From Candidatus Nanoarchaeia archaeon (GTDB taxonomy: Archaea; Nanobdellota; Nanobdellia; Pacearchaeales; GW2011-AR1): a stretch of DNA of 13,343 nucleotides. The stretch covers positions 1-13,343 of the forward strand of contig DATDUI010000076.1 in assembly GCA_035290465.1 (NCBI GenBank), written 5' to 3'. Shown here in pieces: positions 4,460 through 11,150 of the stretch. Position numbers and translations under genes: made by a program. The notes beneath the pieces are model-generated. The model was not told where the DNA came from. It did no database searches and worked only from the letters and a program-made list of their open reading frames with translations. Positions within the stretch are counted from its first letter, which is position 1. The number at the start of each line of letters is the position of its first letter.

Positions 4460-5248
4460 CTAAAGAATATTAGCATAAGGTAAATAATTAATAATTTCAC
4501 ATTCTTTAAATAAATTTATTTGTCTTAAACTTCCCCTATTTGCACCTCTCCACCAAAGTAAAGAATCAACTAAAGCTAAATTAACTTTCTTATTATCTAA
4601 CAAAAATCTTTCATCATAAGAAAAAAAATTTTTAGCATCTTCTTCAATTCTAATATAATCTTTATTATTAGGAGTTTTTCTAACTTTTTGATTACCACTC
4701 AATCTAGGTTTAGAAATAAAATAACTTTCATTTATACTTAAACCGAAACAACTTAAATTTTTCATAACATGTACATCAAGAGCCAATAAATTAGTACCCC
4801 CAAGACAAATATGCCAAAAAGAAAAAGTTTTATTGCTAACCCATTTAACATTCTTACAATACTCCGCTCTTATAACTGAATCCGCATTAAGAATATCCTC
4901 ATACCATAAACCATTTTGTTTTTCAAAATAATCTAAAGGAGCATCAAATCTGTCTTGATGATGAAATCTCCATCCATTTTCCTTAGCAATTTTATTTACT
5001 AATTTTTTATCATTTAAAACATCTAAAGAAGCATATTTTTTTAGAGCATTAAAATCATCAGGATAAGATTTTTGTCTTAAATCATAAATAAACTTACTTG
5101 CAGGTTCCCAAGCCCAAGCCTGACTAGCAATACAAAAAAGTAAAGACTCCAAAGCCCCTTCACTGGTTAAAGGTTTAACTACATGTGCATTTAAAACATT
5201 TTTTGCTTTTTCAATTTCCCAATCAGATATCTCTTCAATCATATTCAA
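4460..5248 (-). CDS. Ogg2/AGOG-like HhH-GPD N-glycosylase/DNA lyase homologue (divergent)
   Basis: The sequence is collinear, from my memory of it, with the archaeal Ogg2 layout. Matching segments are LLFCIASQAWAWE (FCILTANF-like helix), NGWRFHHQ (GHRFY-like), VSNKTFSFWHICLGGTNLLALDVHVMKNL (GIGYKEASHFLRNVG...IIDRHIL-like, with Lys and Asp 18 residues apart) and LVDSLLWW near the C-terminus. The track start at 5248 is a TTG. The first ATG is at 5240-5242 (third codon), 2 nt after the upstream gene's stop. Confidence 0.65.
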   Translation of the reverse strand: MNMIEEISDWEIEKAKNVLNAHVVKPLTSEGALESLLFCIASQAWAWEPASKFIYDLRQKSYPDDFNALKKYASLDVLNDKKLVNKIAKENGWRFHHQDRFDAPLDYFEKQNGLWYEDILNADSVIRAEYCKNVKWVSNKTFSFWHICLGGTNLLALDVHVMKNLSCFGLSINESYFISKPRLSGNQKVRKTPNNKDYIRIEEDAKNFFSYDERFLLDNKKVNLALVDSLLWWRGANRGSLRQINLFKECEIINYLPYANIL

Positions 5249-5766
5249 AAATGAGGATTTTTTTCATCCCAAGATTTAAATTCAAAATCATCATAACCTA
5301 AAACTTTTTTCATTTCTTCTTCATTATCTTTAAAACTTTCCCTATACCTTTGTGCAATATCTAATAAATAAGGAGAATGTTTTGATTTAGAAGTTCTTTT
5401 TTTAATCATATGATTCAAAACAGAAATAATATCACTTCTTTTCAAATTAGTCTGAGGATTTTTTCTAAATCTTCTTTTAATTTTTTTACCATCGATTTTA
5501 CTGATTTTATATTCTGGTTTAGTATGCATTTTGCATAATTCACAATACCATTCAACATTTGAACTACTTTTCGATCTTATACCACATCCATCTTGAAAAT
5601 ATCTATCCATATATTTTTCCTTATCCGGAAACACTTTTTCAACTTCAAGCTTATTTTCTAATAAATCATAAAGCATTAATTCAAGGGGTAAAACATATTT
5701 TTCTGAAAATTCAACTCTTTCTCTTTCATTAAATAAATCATACCAATCAATAATTTCATCAATCAT
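5245..5766 (-). CDS. Hypothetical 173-aa basic protein with a C-X13-C-X2-C-X2-H motif, coupled to the Ogg2-like gene
   Basis: ORF from the track with ATG at 5764-5766 and a TATA-like tttaaaa 28 nt upstream. The stop (5245-5247) abuts or overlaps the start of the downstream glycosylase gene. It contains DGCGIRSKSSSNVEWYCELCKMH and a Lys/Arg-rich segment (KKIKRRFRKNPQTNLKR). No family recognised. Confidence 0.6.
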   Translation of the reverse strand: MIDEIIDWYDLFNERERVEFSEKYVLPLELMLYDLLENKLEVEKVFPDKEKYMDRYFQDGCGIRSKSSSNVEWYCELCKMHTKPEYKISKIDGKKIKRRFRKNPQTNLKRSDIISVLNHMIKKRTSKSKHSPYLLDIAQRYRESFKDNEEEMKKVLGYDDFEFKSWDEKNPHF

Positions 5767-5889: not shown

Positions 5890-6561
5890 ATGTCAAAACA
5901 ATTTTTTAAAAAGATCCCCAAACTTCCGTTATCAGCATTAATATTTTATGTAAGCATTGTAATTTTATGGAAGTTTAAATATATCCCCAGTCCAAGTAAT
6001 ATTCTTTTACTTTTAGAAAATCTTTATATCTCTTATGGTTTGATTGGACTTTTCATCGCCTCATTTTTAGAAGGAATTGTTTATTTTGGGTTGTATTTTC
6101 CTGGTTCTTTTGTTGTTGCTCTTGCGGTCATTCTTTCTAATGGAACTTTCAAATCGCTTTTTTCAATTAGTTTAATCGTAGCAATTGCATTAACCATAAC
6201 TTCTTTAATCAATTATACTTTGGGTAAAAAAATACTGGCTAATAGATTAAATCGAAAATTGTTAGCAGAACAAAAAACAATATTTTCTAAAGACTTTTTA
6301 GTTTCCATGCTCCACCCGAATATTCTTGCTTTTTATTTTTTCAATTCAGGGATAAAAAAACAAAATTTATTGAAAGTTCTTTTAGTCCCTTTAATCATGA
6401 TTCCATATGGCCTTGCATTAGGTTATCTTTTTTACTCAATAAAAGACCCGTTAAGAACAGCAATTGAAAGCCCTTACATTATGGTTTCAATTATTTTATT
6501 TTGGATCTTGCTTACTTTCCTTTTAGAAAACATCAATAAGAAACACATCTTTTCTCCATAA
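5890..6561 (+). CDS. DedA/VTT-domain-like polytopic membrane protein
   Basis: There are multiple hydrophobic helices. FIASFLEGIVYFGLYFPGSFVVALAV resembles the DedA signature (E-x8-P-G-[DES]). The size (223 aa) is typical for the family. Confidence 0.55.
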   Translation: MSKQFFKKIPKLPLSALIFYVSIVILWKFKYIPSPSNILLLLENLYISYGLIGLFIASFLEGIVYFGLYFPGSFVVALAVILSNGTFKSLFSISLIVAIALTITSLINYTLGKKILANRLNRKLLAEQKTIFSKDFLVSMLHPNILAFYFFNSGIKKQNLLKVLLVPLIMIPYGLALGYLFYSIKDPLRTAIESPYIMVSIILFWILLTFLLENINKKHIFSP

Positions 6562-7141: not shown

Positions 7142-8077
7142 TTATTCAATTTTTTCAATATTTTCCAGATGTTTTATTGCTTCAATGAAATTTATTAATT
7201 TTTTTGTTGGTTCTCCCTTGCTTAATATAGTAAAATTAAGGTTTAATTCCTGACTTTTTTTGTATGCTTTTGTTATCTCTTCTTCTCCGATTCTTTTTTT
7301 GCTATATGCTATTAATAAGAATTCAGCATTTTCTTTTTTGACTTTCAAGATTAAATCGTCTTTACTAAACCCTTCAATTCCTGTGATTTCTATTTGTTTT
7401 TTTAATAAATATTCTTTTATTACATCGAAGAATTTTTCATTTGGTTTATTTGCTTGATTTCTTTTTTTTGGAGTACTGTTTTTTTGTGGTCTTTTTTTAA
7501 TTGGTTTTTCTTTTATTTTTATTTCAGATTTTTCAGGATTTTTTTCTTTTGTTTTTTCTAAATGTTGTGGTTCTTTTTCAATTATTTCTTGTTCTTTTTG
7601 AGATTCATTTTCATTAATAACTAATTTTGTTTGTGGTATAATCTCTTCTTTTTCCTCTTTAAGTTCTAATATTGGTGCTGTAAGATATCTCCAAAAAATT
7701 TCTTCTTTATTTTGGAATGGAATTGCAAAATCTTTAATTGCTCTTAATGCAACTCTTATTGCTGGAAGCTGTTCTGAATCGTTTAGAATTTTTTTTTCTT
7801 TTAATAGAATAAAAGCATCTTTTTCCTTGCTTTTAAGATTATTTGAATATCTCTCTAATTGTGGTTCTTGTCCGGATAGATAATAAATAGGGGAACTTCC
7901 GACTCTTAAATGACTGATTTTGATTCTTTTTTCGGATAAAAGTTCAGAAAGAAATGCTGAGGCAAAAAGCATACTTAGACCTGTCCCTTTAGCAATATGA
8001 ATCGGTAAACTTGGTCCTTTATTTTGAATGATTGATATGATGTTTTGTTTTAGTTGAGTTGTATCTTGGGTTGCCAT
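7142..8077 (-). CDS. Tandem winged-helix-like protein with a long K/E-rich linker and a conserved-looking C-terminal domain (unknown function)
   Basis: The first wHTH-like unit is the N-terminal IISIIQNKGPSLPIHIAKGTGLSMLFASAFLSELLSEKRIKISHLRVGSSPIYYL. A second similar unit is KDAFILLKEKKILNDSEQLPAIRVALRAIKDFAIPF. An approximately 90-aa low-complexity K/E/P linker follows, then a C-terminal domain (FFDVIKEYLLKKQIEITGIEGFSKDDLILKVKK...FLLIAYSKKRI). There are no Cys residues. Confidence 0.7.
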   Translation of the reverse strand: MATQDTTQLKQNIISIIQNKGPSLPIHIAKGTGLSMLFASAFLSELLSEKRIKISHLRVGSSPIYYLSGQEPQLERYSNNLKSKEKDAFILLKEKKILNDSEQLPAIRVALRAIKDFAIPFQNKEEIFWRYLTAPILELKEEKEEIIPQTKLVINENESQKEQEIIEKEPQHLEKTKEKNPEKSEIKIKEKPIKKRPQKNSTPKKRNQANKPNEKFFDVIKEYLLKKQIEITGIEGFSKDDLILKVKKENAEFLLIAYSKKRIGEEEITKAYKKSQELNLNFTILSKGEPTKKLINFIEAIKHLENIEKIE

Positions 8078-8152: not shown

Positions 8153-8557
8153 ATGACAAACGCGACATTTTATTATAATGTTCCAACTCCAAATCAAGAA
8201 AGAAGTTTTTTACAAAAAGTTTTTCAATGTGATGAAAAAAGATTAATTGAAAATATTAATAGTCTTGTTTCAAAATTAGGCACTGCAAAAAAAGAATTAT
8301 CTAATGATTCACGATGGGGAGTTCATTGTTTAGAATTAAATTTTCCAATTTTTTCATTTAATATTGATTCAAAAAGTAATTTATATCTTGCTTCTGAAAA
8401 ATTATTTGAAATAACTGCCCCCATTTTTCCTTATTTAGTTAATTCGAATAAAGAAGGATATGATATTCTTGAAAGATTCTTAAAAAATAATTATGCCGGA
8501 AAACTTAAAAAACAATTTTTAGTTCCTGGTAAAAAAATAATTCTTCCGAAAGCTTAA
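8153..8557 (+). CDS. Hypothetical 134-aa protein (no signal peptide, no recognised motif)
   Basis: ORF from the track with an ATG start and a TATA-like atataaaa 30 nt upstream. Confidence 0.55.
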   Translation: MTNATFYYNVPTPNQERSFLQKVFQCDEKRLIENINSLVSKLGTAKKELSNDSRWGVHCLELNFPIFSFNIDSKSNLYLASEKLFEITAPIFPYLVNSNKEGYDILERFLKNNYAGKLKKQFLVPGKKIILPKA

Positions 8558-8584
8558 AGTTTTATTTGTCAGCAGTTGCATAAA

Positions 8585-8677
8585 CTTTATAAATCGATAA
8601 TTTATACTTTTTATATGACAATAAAAAAAACACTTGGAGTAATTGCATTAGCTTCAACAATCGGGTTAGTTGGATGT
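8585..8677 (+). promoter_or_regulatory. 5' cassette copy 1: TATA-like promoter (tttataaa 8586-8593), ATG 8615 and a 63-nt signal-peptide coding repeat
   Basis: The 34-nt ctttataaatcgataatttatactttttatatga is repeated exactly at 9005-9038 and with 3 changes at 9513-9546. The 63 coding nt recur at 9131-9193 with 1 change. Confidence 0.6.
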
Positions 8678-8992
8678 TCAAATAATCAAGAATATAATTT
8701 TAAGGGAAAAATCGGCGAAGATCAAGTCTATTTCTATGAAAAAAATCTTGGAAATACGAATATTCTTGAAGTTGTAAAAACAGATGGAAGTATTGTAAAA
8801 TTTGTTGATGATGCAAATAACGATTTAAAAATTGAATATGTTCAAATAACAACTGGAAAGAATCAAACAAGCTATTATGCTTCTTCTAAAAATCCTATTG
8901 TAGCAGGAATTGCCCAAAAAGCACAAGAAGAATTTGATTCTTATTTAACAAAAATAATTGAGATTCAGACAGCTCCACTATATAAAGAATAA
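8615..8992 (+). CDS. Putative secreted lipoprotein A (lipobox LVGC), paralogue of 9547-9969
   Basis: The signal peptide is MTIKKTLGVIALASTIGLVGC|SNN. The track ORF begins at a TTG (8576), but that falls inside the promoter cassette. ATG 8615 is the start shared with the paralogues and lies 29 nt from the TATA-like box. Confidence 0.8.
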   Translation: MTIKKTLGVIALASTIGLVGCSNNQEYNFKGKIGEDQVYFYEKNLGNTNILEVVKTDGSIVKFVDDANNDLKIEYVQITTGKNQTSYYASSKNPIVAGIAQKAQEEFDSYLTKIIEIQTAPLYKE

Positions 8993-9004
8993 TTCTTCCT
9001 CAAT

Positions 9005-9038
9005 CTTTATAAATCGATAATTTATACTTTTTATATGA
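9005..9038 (+). promoter_or_regulatory. Orphan exact copy of the lipoprotein promoter cassette (no signal-peptide ORF attached)
   Basis: There is a 34/34 nt identity with 8585-8618, including the ATGA. The downstream sequence diverges into a 13-codon ORF (9035-9076). Confidence 0.5.
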
Positions 9039-9102
9039 TTCTTCGAGGGTTTAATTTGAACGTCAGAGAGTATTAACTTTAAAGTGGTGACACAACGAAA
9101 GA

Positions 9103-9193
9103 TTTATAAACAAGTAAACTATTTATTTATATGACAATAAAAAAAACACTTGGAGCAATTGCATTAGCTTCAACAATCGGGTTAGTTGGATGT
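9103..9193 (+). promoter_or_regulatory. 5' cassette copy with a variant promoter (tttataaa 9103-9110) plus a near-identical 63-nt signal-peptide coding repeat
   Basis: 9131-9193 differs from 8615-8677 at one position (gta to gca, V to A). The TATA-like box lies 28 nt upstream of the ATG. Confidence 0.55.
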
Positions 9194-9505
9194 GCACCTA
9201 TTCCAGATGAAAAATTTATCCCTGAATATATTTATGGTGTAGTAACTAAAGAAGGAGGATCAATTGTTGATTCTGTAAACTCTAAAGATTATAATTGTAG
9301 AGATCCTACTTATGCAATCCAATTTAAAGCAGATGATGGTAAATTATATACTTTTCAAATTTTTGGAGGTCGATTAGATGCTTTAAATTTAGCAATTAAT
9401 AAAGGAACAAAAATAAGAATGAAAAAAAATAACTTTAATCATAATCTTCATAGTTTAGTTGGAGAAATCTCCGATCGTCATGTACAAATCCTTGAATCTG
9501 AATAA
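9131..9505 (+). CDS. Putative secreted lipoprotein B (same signal peptide, unrelated mature domain)
   Basis: The signal peptide is MTIKKTLGAIALASTIGLVGC|APIP. The mature part (EYIYGVVTKEGGSIVDS...YTFQIFGGRLDALNLAINKGTKIRM) shows no visible similarity to A or C. Confidence 0.8.
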   Translation: MTIKKTLGAIALASTIGLVGCAPIPDEKFIPEYIYGVVTKEGGSIVDSVNSKDYNCRDPTYAIQFKADDGKLYTFQIFGGRLDALNLAINKGTKIRMKKNNFNHNLHSLVGEISDRHVQILESE

Positions 9506-9512
9506 AATAATC

Positions 9513-9570
9513 TAAACTTTATAAACAAATAATTTATACTTTTTATATGACAATAAAAAAAACACTTGGA
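9513..9570 (+). promoter_or_regulatory. 5' cassette copy: promoter plus the first 24 coding nt
   Basis: taaactttataaaCAAataatttatactttttatatgacaataaaaaaaacacttgga matches 8581-8638 except for tcg to caa. The tttataaa box at 9518-9525 lies 29 nt from ATG 9547. Confidence 0.55.
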
Positions 9571-9969
9571 ATATTGGCAGGAGCAACTTTATGTCTATTT
9601 GGATCTTTCTATAATTCAGAAACTTTTAATAGAAAAATAGGTGAAGAGCAAGTCCGATTCTATGAAGACTTTTTTGGAAAACATACTCTTGAAGTTATAA
9701 TCAAAGATGGAAGTGAAAAAAAATATTATGATTTCAACAATGACTCAAAAATAGATTCTGTTAAAACAGTTATTAATGGTAAGACCGCTAATTATCATAC
9801 TAGGGGGTATAATTACTATTTGGATAAAATTGGAAAATCAGAGAAGATAGTAGATTATTATGTTAGTACTAATAAGCAAATTGTATCTAATATGATTAAT
9901 ACTTCACAAATAGAATATGACAATTATTTAAGACAAATAACAAATATCAAGGTAATCAATAAAGAATAA
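9547..9969 (+). CDS. Putative secreted/membrane-anchored protein C, diverged paralogue of lipoprotein A
   Basis: It shares MTIKKTLG, then has a diverged hydrophobic region (ILAGATLCLFGS). The mature part aligns with A: KIGEEQVRFYED vs KIGEDQVYFYEK, LEVIIKDGS vs LEVVKTDGS, EYDNYLRQITNIK vs EFDSYLTKIIEIQ. Both end in KE. Confidence 0.8.
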   Translation: MTIKKTLGILAGATLCLFGSFYNSETFNRKIGEEQVRFYEDFFGKHTLEVIIKDGSEKKYYDFNNDSKIDSVKTVINGKTANYHTRGYNYYLDKIGKSEKIVDYYVSTNKQIVSNMINTSQIEYDNYLRQITNIKVINKE

Positions 9970-9988
9970 ATATTTTATTTTAATGAAT

Positions 9989-10507
9989 CTAAGGTTTTAC
10001 CCATTTAACTTCATAATAAGTTATTGAACCTTCTTCATCTAAAATTGCTAAAAGCAAATTTTTCTTTGTTGAATGTGCAACTCTATTTTTTGCAGAAAAT
10101 TCGTGCCATGTTAATTTATTTGATTCATGGTCTGTAAAAACAATCCACTTTGCATGTTCTTTACCGGGTTTTGTTCCTTTTTCGTAAATTCTAAATTCTG
10201 CCCCGAATTTTAAGGCTGTTTTTACTGTATATCCTTTATCTCTTAAATCTTTAAAGACAAGATATTTAATATGTATTTTTTTATCGATTTTTTTTAATTT
10301 TTCCATCAATCCCTCAAAATTAAGAATCTTTTTTCCGAAATAAATTTCAATCTTATTTCTTTCTGTTAAATAAAGTGCTTCAGGTAATGAATATTGAATT
10401 TTATTTTGAACGAGTTCTCCAAATCGACTTTTATTATAGAGTGCATATGCTTCTGAATCATTAGTTGAAATTATTTCTCCTGTGATGTATGTTTTTATTT
10501 TTTCCAT
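9989..10507 (-). CDS. endA: tRNA-splicing (intron) endonuclease, short homotetramer-type
   Basis: LPEALYLTERNKIEI, FKDLRDKGYTVKTALKFGAEFRIYEKG, EHAKWIV and AHSTKKNLLLAI match the archaeal EndA pattern, including the Tyr/His/Lys catalytic positions. The size (172 aa) fits the alpha4 type. Confidence 0.9.
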   Translation of the reverse strand: MEKIKTYITGEIISTNDSEAYALYNKSRFGELVQNKIQYSLPEALYLTERNKIEIYFGKKILNFEGLMEKLKKIDKKIHIKYLVFKDLRDKGYTVKTALKFGAEFRIYEKGTKPGKEHAKWIVFTDHESNKLTWHEFSAKNRVAHSTKKNLLLAILDEEGSITYYEVKWVKP

Positions 10508-10524: not shown

Positions 10525-10553
10525 GTAATATTTAAAAGTTATTGAGAGGTTTA
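10525..10553. promoter_or_regulatory. 29-bp upstream element (gtaatatttaaaagttattgagaggttta) in the 51-bp endA/hydrolase divergent intergenic region
   Basis: An exact 29/29 repeat occurs at 11122-11150. Its AT core (aatatttaaaa, 10527-10537) lies about 30 nt from the endA ATG (10507, -) and about 29 nt from the hydrolase ATG (10559, +). It also contains gagagg 8-10 nt upstream of the + strand ATG. Confidence 0.55.
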
Positions 10554-10558
10554 AATGT

Positions 10559-11122
10559 ATGAATTGTATAATTGTGCATGGTAGTAATGATTGTAAGGAA
10601 GAAGCAAAAGAATTGCCATTAGAAAATGAAAGACATTGGATGCCTTGGATCAAAAAAGAATTAGAAAAAAGAAGGATAAAAGTTTCAAATGAATTGTATC
10701 CTAAAGATTGGTTGCCGGATTATAAAGAATGGAAAAATGTTTTTGAAAAGAATAAAATTAATGAAGAAACGGTTTTAATTGGACATAGTTCGGGTGGAGG
10801 GTTTTTAGTTAGATGGCTTAGTGAAACACAAAAGAAAGTTAAGAAATTGATTTTAGTTGCTCCTGCTATTTTTCATTCTGGATGGGGGAAATCTCTTGAG
10901 GGTTTATTAAAATTTGATATCAATCCTAACATTAAAAATAATGTGAGAGAAATTATTCTTTTTGTTTCTTTAGATGATGAAAAAAATATTCTAAAATCTG
11001 TTGAGATTTTTTCTAAAGCTTTAGATATTAAACCTATTATTTTTGACAATTATGGGCATTTTACTGAATCAGAAATGAGAACAAAAGAATTTCCTGAGCT
11101 TTTAGCGAAAATTCTTTCTTAG
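10559..11122 (+). CDS. YdeN/RBBP9-family alpha/beta serine hydrolase
   Basis: IIVHGS...HWMPWIKKELEKR, the nucleophile elbow GHSSGG, SLDDE (Asp) and YGHF (His) are present, and it is about 190 aa. This is the characteristic layout of the small YdeN-type serine hydrolases. Confidence 0.8.
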   Translation: MNCIIVHGSNDCKEEAKELPLENERHWMPWIKKELEKRRIKVSNELYPKDWLPDYKEWKNVFEKNKINEETVLIGHSSGGGFLVRWLSETQKKVKKLILVAPAIFHSGWGKSLEGLLKFDINPNIKNNVREIILFVSLDDEKNILKSVEIFSKALDIKPIIFDNYGHFTESEMRTKEFPELLAKILS

Positions 11123-11150
11123 TAATATTTAAAAGTTATTGAGAGGTTTA
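11122..11150 (+). promoter_or_regulatory. Second exact copy of the 29-bp upstream element, in front of leuS
   Basis: It is identical to 10525-10553. The atttaaaa core lies about 30 nt upstream of ATG 11157. The element begins immediately after the hydrolase stop (TAG 11120-11122, sharing its G). Confidence 0.55.

Follow-up and report, generated by a model that had tools for sequence, protein, structure and literature searches.

The question raised by the locus considered here is why neighboring genes that encode small, presumably exposed proteins, one of which is unrelated in its body to the others, should begin with almost the same string of nucleotides. The locus belongs to a stretch of 13,343 nucleotides (hereafter “the window”; ENA contig ERZ27254746 k141_92049, from a genome with 27% GC) and consists of three open reading frames (ORFs), A, B and C, all located on the + strand between a gene that we call U and the gene of the tRNA-splicing endonuclease EndA. 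What recurs is a “cassette” in which core promoter, start codon and signal peptide are contained within ~100 bp. The answer that we regard as probable is that A, B and C constitute a recombining, tandemly duplicated cluster of genes for small surface (lipo)proteins, in which promoter, start and leader evolve in concert as one module. The features of the module and its borders are the following:

8153–8557, + strand: gene U (ORF call), which encodes a cytoplasmic protein of 134 aa and anchors the module on its left
8582–8614, + strand: core promoter of A, with a transcription factor B recognition element (BRE)-like AAAC and a TATA box, TTTATAAA, at 8586–8593
8615–8992, + strand: gene A, a predicted prolipoprotein of 125 aa; leader at 8615–8677 = MTIKKTLGVIALASTIGLVGC, lipobox LVGC
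8984–9038, + strand: orphan block made of a U 3′-end fragment, AATAATTCTTCC, the A promoter and ATGA; it heads a 13-codon ORF (9035–9076)
9039–9130, + strand: native upstream region of B, with a conserved element at ~9050–9112 and its own TATA box at 9103–9110
9131–9505, + strand: gene B, a predicted prolipoprotein of 124 aa; leader at 9131–9193, mature domain resembling in its model an oligonucleotide/oligosaccharide-binding (OB) fold
9506–9546, + strand: core promoter of C, TATA box at 9518–9525, preceded by AAAATAAT-CTAAA
9547–9969, + strand: gene C, 140 aa, paralogue of A without a canonical lipobox
9970–10002, no strand: right boundary of the module, i.e., the C–EndA intergenic region and the 3′ coding end of EndA (…TAAGGTTTTACCC)
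9989–10507, – strand: EndA, the right-hand neighbor of the module

The leader-coding 63 nt of A and B are identical at 62 positions, and the 34-nt core promoter of A, CTTTATAAATCGATAATTTATACTTTTTATATGA (8585–8618), is found again before C (9517–9550) with 31/34 identities. Over the longer stretch the match between 8581–8638 and 9513–9570 is 55/58, so that the recurrence of the promoter and of the first 24 coding nt with three substitutions, described in a first-pass annotation of this DNA, is borne out; C has only the first 24–27 nt in common with A and B. The same annotation had the 34-nt block and the next 59 coding nt recur together at 9131–9193, a claim that holds for the leader and fails for the promoter, B being preceded by a diverged promoter of its own (9101–9134 matches the A promoter at 17/34 positions when ungapped, or can be aligned to it with one gap). 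A perfect promoter copy had, on the other hand, been overlooked: the orphan at 9005–9038, between A and B, is 34/34 identical to the A promoter plus ATGA (36/37 across 9002–9038) and drives nothing but the 13-codon ORF. Neither the 23-mer common to A, B and C, ATGACAATAAAAAAAACACTTGG (three occurrences, no mismatch), nor the 34-mer promoter (three occurrences at ≤3 mismatches) is expected even once by chance (expectation 0 in 200 shuffles).

A TATA-like box stands ~25–30 nt before the ATG of every gene of the window, and the TTTATAAA boxes of A, B and C are found ~26 nt before it. In archaeal promoters the TATA box is centered ~26 nt ahead of the transcription start; therefore, the mRNAs of the three genes are predicted to be leaderless, their transcription start sites having been placed from this promoter geometry.

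The evidence that the module evolves in concert comes from the comparison of the window with two related strain types, L015 (a 6.5-kb contig whose EndA gene is 96.9% identical at the nucleotide level) and L001 (1.1 kb); L numbers denote here the loci and contigs compared. Over the 63 nt of the leader, A and B differ at one position in the window and at eight in L015, whereas the window and L015 orthologues differ at five positions in the case of A and at ten in that of B. The synonymous differences between the two leaders amount to 0 over 16.3 sites in the window and to 5.5 over 16.5 sites in L015 (dS 0.44) and, by our own arithmetic, the probability of finding none at the L015 rate is P ~0.001. 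Furthermore, lineage-specific changes are shared by paralogues: ATCGGGTTAGTT is common to A and B of the window; ACTCTT, specific for L015, is present in both A and C of this strain, where the A-like part of C extends over 43 nt rather than 27; the C-type promoter variant CAA occurs before both A and C of L001. Because copies within a genome share such changes and, in the window, A and B differ from each other less than the orthologues do, the pattern bears the signature of repeated non-allelic gene conversion of the 5′ module, and the earlier suggestion of a cassette homogenized beyond the needs of the proteins agrees with these data.

Could selection alone produce the same picture? Simple tandem duplication without gene conversion, the nucleotides of promoter and leader being kept constant afterwards by strong purifying selection (e.g., for leaderless translation and export), would account for the paralogy of A and C, for the junction scars described below, which prove tandem duplication, and for the conservation, across strains and copies, of the first ~25 coding nt and of the TATA-to-ATG spacer. 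This explanation is nevertheless rendered quite improbable by the fact that a gene with an unrelated body, B, has nearly the leader of A with no synonymous change, at a dS of 0.44 for the same pair in L015, by the sharing of ATCGGGTTAGTT, ACTCTT and CAA among the copies of one genome and by the finding that in L017, another related haplotype, the 5′ end of B is replaced by an A-type block including an A-type single-nucleotide polymorphism (SNP).

A variable module driven by recombination had also been proposed at the outset, and related strains indeed vary: neither the sequence in which the genes follow each other nor the set of genes is constant among the haplotypes (A-B-C, A-C-B and A-B), whose breakpoints lie at the cassette. 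Four of them, and only these, are counted as secure:

Window type: U–A–[orphan promoter]–[92 nt]–B–C–EndA
L015: U–A–C–[~240-nt spacer]–B–EndA, with B beyond C
L001: U–A–C
L017: A–“orphan” block–B–EndA, without the 92-nt segment and without C

In L017 the 3′ end of A is 100% window-type and runs into the orphan block, which is joined straight to the leader (at the GTA codon of A) and to B; since the block is here attached to the B leader, the orphan of the window is B’s promoter block in another haplotype. The B alleles are mosaic: N-terminal parts of two types are combined with C-terminal parts of two types, and the breakpoint interval is a single, common one. L030 and L031 (window-type on the left, L015-type on the right, C absent) and L032 (L015-type on the left, window-type on the right) look as if a crossover within B, between arrays of either gene order, had generated them reciprocally, if their sequences are taken at face value, but are short, of low coverage or from one biosample. 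L016, in which an A-type promoter is placed directly on B, ends 10 nt past the repeat and was set aside as evidence, being possibly chimeric. In L008, a contig that is otherwise identical to the window, the EndA gene (4859–5377, corresponding to 9989–10507 of the window) has L015-type SNPs in one patch (97.7% identity) and is again window-type near its 5′ end; the patch may reflect either homologous exchange between co-occurring strains or strain mixing during assembly.

Strain mixing might in principle have generated the cassette and the orphan promoter altogether, since strains of the window type and of the L015 type co-occur, L030–L032 are not only short and of low coverage but also recombinant-looking, and in L010 an apparent loss of EndA turned out to be an artefact, i.e., a scaffold N-gap with duplicated ends (2478–2577) exactly at the C/EndA junction. 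The window arrangement is, however, found base-for-base in independent assemblies of many samples, and the repeats (34–93 nt) are shorter than the final megahit k (k141 in the case of the window and of L015 and k127 in that of L017), so that, as inferred from the contig names, each junction is spanned by single k-mers. Misassembly is thus an explanation to which we assign hardly any weight.

A different reading of the same arrangement follows from the analogy with Mycoplasma vsp/vlp drawn in the first-pass annotation: as in the programmed phase or antigenic variation of the vsp/vpma/vlp loci, the 5′ cassette would be a site of recombination or slippage at which expression is switched, at high frequency, from one surface lipoprotein to another. 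Adjacent genes with a conserved 5′ region and a lipoprotein signal, an orphan copy of the promoter, an A8 tract in codons 3–6 and a T5 tract in the promoter, both of which could slip, and a promoter driving B that differs between strains are all features that such a mechanism would lead one to expect. Yet a separate TATA promoter serves each gene, the three genes are located on a single strand, no recombinase Pfam domain is present in any ORF of the 13-kb window, the inverted repeats of the region are weak and at chance level, Tandem Repeats Finder (TRF) detects no tandem repeats in the gene bodies, and the homopolymer tracts have identical lengths in all copies seen. Above all, no fewer than 24 contigs, which correspond to 47 index blocks and come from many samples, have the A-B-C haplotype with 100% identical proteins, the order being the same in the contexts listed. 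An arrangement identical in at least 24 contigs is not what Mycoplasma-type switching would leave; the mechanism is therefore highly improbable here and this part of the annotation is abandoned: the variation is between strains and not of high frequency within a clone.

How the array was built can be deduced in part from what was left at its junctions. The TATA box of A includes, in L001 and L015, the stop codon of U (…AATAATTCTTCCTAAATCTTTATAAA); between these two elements the window carries ~30 nt in excess of the other two strains. A remnant of the 3′ end of U, AAAATAAT…CTAAA, precedes the promoters of both C and B in all strains, and the orphan of the window retains AATAATTCTTCC and is fused at an AATAA microhomology to the stop codon of A, the 3′ end of B being joined to the promoter of C at a AATAAAAT microhomology. 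Downstream of A, L001 and L015 have aaattatctaa followed by TTAAGGTTTTATC, a 13-mer derived from the 3′ coding end of EndA, which is present in two copies in L015 and in one, after A, in L001. These passenger fragments of U and EndA at the junctions show the units to have originated from tandem duplications that comprised the entire U–EndA interval, and the arrays of the window type and of the L015 type evidently have different duplication junctions.

In the scheme that we favor the cluster would have grown by tandem segmental duplications of the interval between U and EndA, which would have yielded C from A and left fragments of the 3′ ends of U and EndA at the unit junctions; an unrelated lipoprotein gene, B, would have joined, bringing its own upstream region. 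The ~100-bp 5′ module would supply the BRE/TATA promoter, a start codon placed where transcription is predicted to begin, both the n-region and the h-region of a Sec signal and, in A and B, also the LVGC for lipid anchoring at Cys21, each gene being its own transcription unit. Non-allelic gene conversion and recombination would keep promoter and leader near-identical within a genome, the shared modules offering the homology at which genes may be reordered, placed under the promoter of another copy, or lost, as the exposed mature domains meanwhile diverge fast. The direction and the exact order of these events in the history of the array are a reconstruction.

As to the products, A and C are diverged paralogues, as had been supposed, with 39% identity (E=1e-19). 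When either is compared with B, the leader alone is aligned, both by BLASTP and by hhalign of the family profiles, and the predicted folds differ; since the profile–profile comparison aligns nothing but the leader, B is not a diverged A, and the earlier view of an unrelated body has withstood this comparison. When a profile built from A, C and five homologues was searched against 1.84 billion entries, 493 representatives reached E≤1e-3 and 286 reached E≤1e-10; nearly all are of 120–150 aa, and one is named Candidatus Woesearchaeota. The match spans the whole mature domain, with the motifs PEYxFxGKIGEEQVxFYE, LEVxKxDG and AQxxFDxYLxKI, so that A and C belong to a large unnamed family of predicted DPANN lipoproteins. 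Searches of Pfam and NCBIfam gave nothing above the curated score cut-offs for A, B or C, the A/C family being in neither database. In the AlphaFold model of A the mature domain is predicted with confidence and consists of a six-strand beta meander and a long C-terminal helix (mean predicted local distance difference test (pLDDT) scores ~83–96 per 10-residue block over residues 31–120); a structure search with it found no significant match in PDB or in a viral library, and a relationship to an OspA-like single-layer sheet or to C1QBP was rejected, the matches being weak. For B seven relatives were found, all carrying L[VATS]GC; its model is less confident (pLDDT 66) and has as best Foldseek match an IF1-type OB fold (E 2.8e-3, target TM-score 0.66–0.70); the mature domain may be a closed five-stranded beta barrel akin to those of the IF1/S1 type.

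The N-termini of A and B share the layout MTIKK + TLG(V/A)IALASTIG + LVGC, that is, a charged n-region, a hydrophobic h-region and Cys21, and both conform to the lipobox as defined for archaea, [LVI] at –3, [ASTVI] at –2, [GAS] at –1 and C at +1; lipoproteins and the enzyme AliA are predicted to be common in DPANN (PMC12462473). The LVGC lipobox initially attributed to the cassette is therefore confirmed for A and B, across whose families it is conserved, and not for C, which carries the non-canonical ATLC, or for the L015 orthologue of C, which lacks Cys altogether. These two are among the few members of their family without a proper lipobox: of the 153 members fetched, 135 match a lipobox-like pattern and most of the others still have a Cys where the hydrophobic region ends. 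Lipidation is accordingly predicted for A and B, C being probably a signal-anchored protein or a secreted one processed by signal peptidase I (SPase I), and a surface or host-contact role may be envisaged for all three. A pair of another kind is seen in L033 (1844–2668), where an A-family lipoprotein gene is accompanied, 60 nt on, by that of an unrelated 126-aa lipobox protein (MKRILLPLLISGLALTGC…, with an acidic DxNKDG-like motif); leader and promoter are different there, and tandem small lipoprotein genes thus also exist without a common cassette.

The conserved start of these genes is followed by parts that change rapidly. Between the window and L015 the ratio of nonsynonymous to synonymous substitution rates (dN/dS) is 0.07 for ribosomal protein S17e, 0.07 for orf311 and 0.10 for EndA, to be compared with 0.53 for mature C, 0.85 for mature B and 1.04 for mature A; for A against L001 it is 1.4–1.7, over few sites. 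Values of 0.5–1.0 next to neighbors at 0.07–0.10 argue for relaxed or diversifying selection on the presumably exposed mature parts, as far as such small counts go. U, although cytoplasmic, is also fast-evolving (78% amino acid identity and dN/dS 0.54 against L015), its N-terminal third being too diverged for blastn, and no Pfam or NCBIfam model reaches its curated cut-off with this protein.

A number of considerations weigh against the interpretation of the cluster as a recombining array with a module evolving in concert. The dN/dS values come from short genes, with ~10 synonymous differences each, in a genome of low GC content. The first ~25 coding nt are similar in all orthologues and paralogues (0–6 differences), and this conservation could be due to selection on leaderless translation initiation instead of conversion. 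L016 and the recombinant haplotypes L030–L032 could be strain-mixing assembly chimeras. Lipidation and leaderless transcription are predictions made from sequence. Finally, whether the leader is a generic one has been seen through 13 kb of this genome only. Among the GTDB genomes the 23-mer ATGACAATAAAAAAAACACTTGG has no match, and a protein-pattern scan returned just two distant single-copy loci, from which the cassette is absent; a leader protein search with a doubled 42-aa query gave eight word-sharing candidates, none of which scored, in an index that also missed the cluster of A itself. There is in this at most a faint hint that the leader may not be widespread. Scans of viral contigs likewise gave no matches to the cassette; a single hit, located inside a coding region, was due to chance.

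A separate problem is posed by the 92-nt segment that, in the window, is interposed between the orphan promoter and B. Its part at 9071–9110 is 88% identical to the sequence that, in L004, immediately precedes the TATA box of an A-family gene (41 nt aligned, E=6e-7), and 9075–9192 matches the upstream region and leader of a B-family gene in L011 (2223–2346, E=4e-6); to judge from these alignments the segment is the native upstream region of B. A similarity to the C–B spacer of L015 was considered and dropped, not being above that of shuffled sequences. The element concerned (…ATTAACTTYAAAGTAGTAAAAGAACCGRAAGRTTTATAA, with the palindromes ACTTTAAAGT and CAGAATTCTG) is located before A-family genes in L002 and L004–L006 and before B-family genes in L011, L012 and L035. 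Further upstream of the promoter element there is a conserved stretch richer in G+C (…TTAACATCGG…GAGCGCAGCGGGGCAAAATCC…) with short GAA/GAAG-loop hairpins (L002 ~7780–7910, L004 ~5960–6104, L011 ~2120–2190, L035 ~620–770; like hairpins are present downstream of the L035 gene), which may represent either a repeat element or an RNA with a defined structure. No Rfam family was found in or near the module in the window, L015, L002, L004 or L011, a permissive scan upstream of the L002 gene gave nothing credible, and no tRNA remnants were found. L011, which carries a B-family gene, also contains (1525–1622, – strand) a match to Rfam Bacteria_small_SRP of 46.6 bits, above the gathering threshold, and this may be either an unusual signal recognition particle (SRP) RNA or a hint concerning the binning or taxonomy of the contig.

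L002 and L004 have in common a single 520-bp unit (90% identity), their 15-kb contexts being otherwise unrelated, and the flanks of such units are inverted repeats, with scores of 37 against 16.5±3.2 for shuffled sequences in L002, 47 against 17.9±3.0 in L004 and 46 against 22±4.2 in L035; in L011, the window and L015 the inverted flanks are not significant with respect to shuffles. These data raise the possibility that expression-ready units of ~0.5 kb, each composed of a regulated promoter and one lipoprotein gene between inverted promoter-region borders, move between loci and genomes, and that B of the window arrived in this way. The sharing of the 520-bp unit alone by L002 and L004, the occurrence of one and the same upstream element before A-family genes, B-family genes and B of the window, and the inverted flanks far above shuffles in three loci speak for this possibility. 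It is opposed by the circumstances that the loci are just four independent ones, that target-site duplications and empty sites were not found in them, that in L011, the window and L015 the borders do not exceed chance, and that family members in L028, L029 and L033 are devoid of the element. Moreover, the inner inverted arm is largely consensus BRE/TATA and occurs also on a 43-kb viral contig (L038, IMG/VR UViG_3300045118_000151; 997–1015, – strand), where GAACCGAAAGGTTTATAAATA stands 24 nt ahead of the ATG of an unrelated gene; this contig probably represents an archaeal virus using a consensus strong promoter. The viral occurrence and the consensus nature of the inner arm weaken the reading of the inverted repeats as transposon ends, and an equally good reading of the flanks would be that of convergent sense and antisense promoters.

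On balance, that lipoprotein genes of unrelated families travel in Nanoarchaeia as ~0.5-kb cassettes, the window being an array of them exchanging their 5′ ends, is in our opinion rather unlikely, if by no means negligible; equally tentative is the make-up that each such cassette would have, namely an operator-like palindrome, BRE/TATA, a leaderless start, a leader and an inverted promoter copy at the stop codon. The idea of mobile units, which overlaps in part with the reading that we prefer, is treated as a lead only.

The cluster of duplicated genes with a module evolving in concert lies in a chromosomal context, its neighbors in the window being archaeal housekeeping genes, i.e., those of alanyl-tRNA synthetase (AlaRS), ribosomal protein S17e, EndA and leucyl-tRNA synthetase (LeuRS). 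The archaeal source assumed in the first-pass annotation can be specified as a Nanoarchaeia (DPANN) population, B being 100% identical to a protein of a metagenome-assembled genome (MAG) annotated “Candidatus Nanoarchaeia archaeon”. Outside the module the surroundings contain other variable spots. A perfect 29-nt direct repeat, GTAATATTTAAAAGTTATTGAGAGGTTTA, at 10525–10553 and 11122–11150, flanks a serine-hydrolase gene (10559–11122) and holds the promoters of EndA/hydrolase and of LeuRS; L017 has one copy of GTAATATTTAAAAGTTATTGAGAGGTTTA and lacks the hydrolase gene, which represents a second presence/absence polymorphism bounded by a duplicated promoter block. In L015 (546–1865, – strand) the gene of a 439-aa RHS/YD-shell repeat protein replaces orf223 of the window and its neighbors a few kb upstream of the module, this position being another strain-variable one.

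DPANN archaea live attached to host cells and, because of this, their surface proteins are the interface of their lifestyle. To our knowledge, very little is known about the diversification of these proteins besides diversity-generating retroelements, and the locus would represent a second and simpler route, in which a uniform module is used to duplicate, reorder, re-promote and drop genes between co-existing strains and in which, beside this module, the exposed domains evolve at near-neutral or faster rates. It would also offer a natural case in which the signals for transcription, leaderless translation, export and lipidation are packed into ~100 bp, and the family of 493 representatives provides candidate archaeal lipoproteins for the AliA/AliB pathway outside haloarchaea. 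If true, the portable cassettes would amount to a surface-remodeling gene-cassette system of DPANN without a described counterpart.

Which of the known systems does the locus resemble? In the archaeal lipoproteins predicted in connection with the AliA/AliB pathway of Haloferax volcanii, as in A and B, the lipobox follows a positive n-region and a hydrophobic h-region; tandem arrays and common promoter–leader cassettes are not described in the study of this pathway (PMC12462473), and there is no AliA gene in the window. The vsp/vpma/vsa/vlp loci of Mycoplasma are likewise clusters of lipoprotein genes with a conserved 5′ untranslated region (UTR), signal peptide and cleavage motif; they have one active promoter, the other genes being silent, and an adjacent tyrosine recombinase (Xer1/Mbr/HvsR), recombination sites are located in the 5′ UTR, segments are inverted, the bodies are repetitive and switching occurs at a very high rate (PMC2268961), whereas single promoter, recombinase, inversions and repeats were not found in the window and there is no homology. 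Closer in its dynamics is the lpl cluster of Staphylococcus aureus (νSaα island), where tandem lipoprotein genes undergo strain-specific rearrangements by recombining at a conserved nucleotide stretch, the site of homologous recombination that gives rise to mosaic genes (PMC2568036). In lpl, however, this stretch is central in the ORF and all members are homologous, whereas in the present case it consists of promoter and leader and the body of B is unrelated; here, too, homology is absent.

The best functional analogue of A, B and C, by analogy and not by homology, would seem to be offered by the “upstream homology box” (UHB)/Erp-Elp genes of Borrelia, in which different subfamilies of mature proteins share promoter region and leader peptide (PMC7002432, PMC12242104). 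As in our locus, a highly similar promoter box and leader are attached to lipoproteins whose mature parts are in part unrelated. The Borrelia genes are carried at equivalent loci by multicopy cp32 prophage plasmids, with sigma-70 promoters and Shine–Dalgarno (SD)-led mRNA, unlike the chromosomal tandem array described here, which is inserted between housekeeping genes, has archaeal BRE/TATA promoters, is probably leaderless and bears no sequence relationship to them. Akins et al. (1999) and Marconi et al. (1996) reportedly held recombination in the 5′ region responsible for the Borrelia pattern. In the literature searched, a promoter–leader module of this kind was not found described for any archaeon. 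What the locus of the window embodies is thus not programmed switching but the archaeal and presumably leaderless version of a bacterial design.

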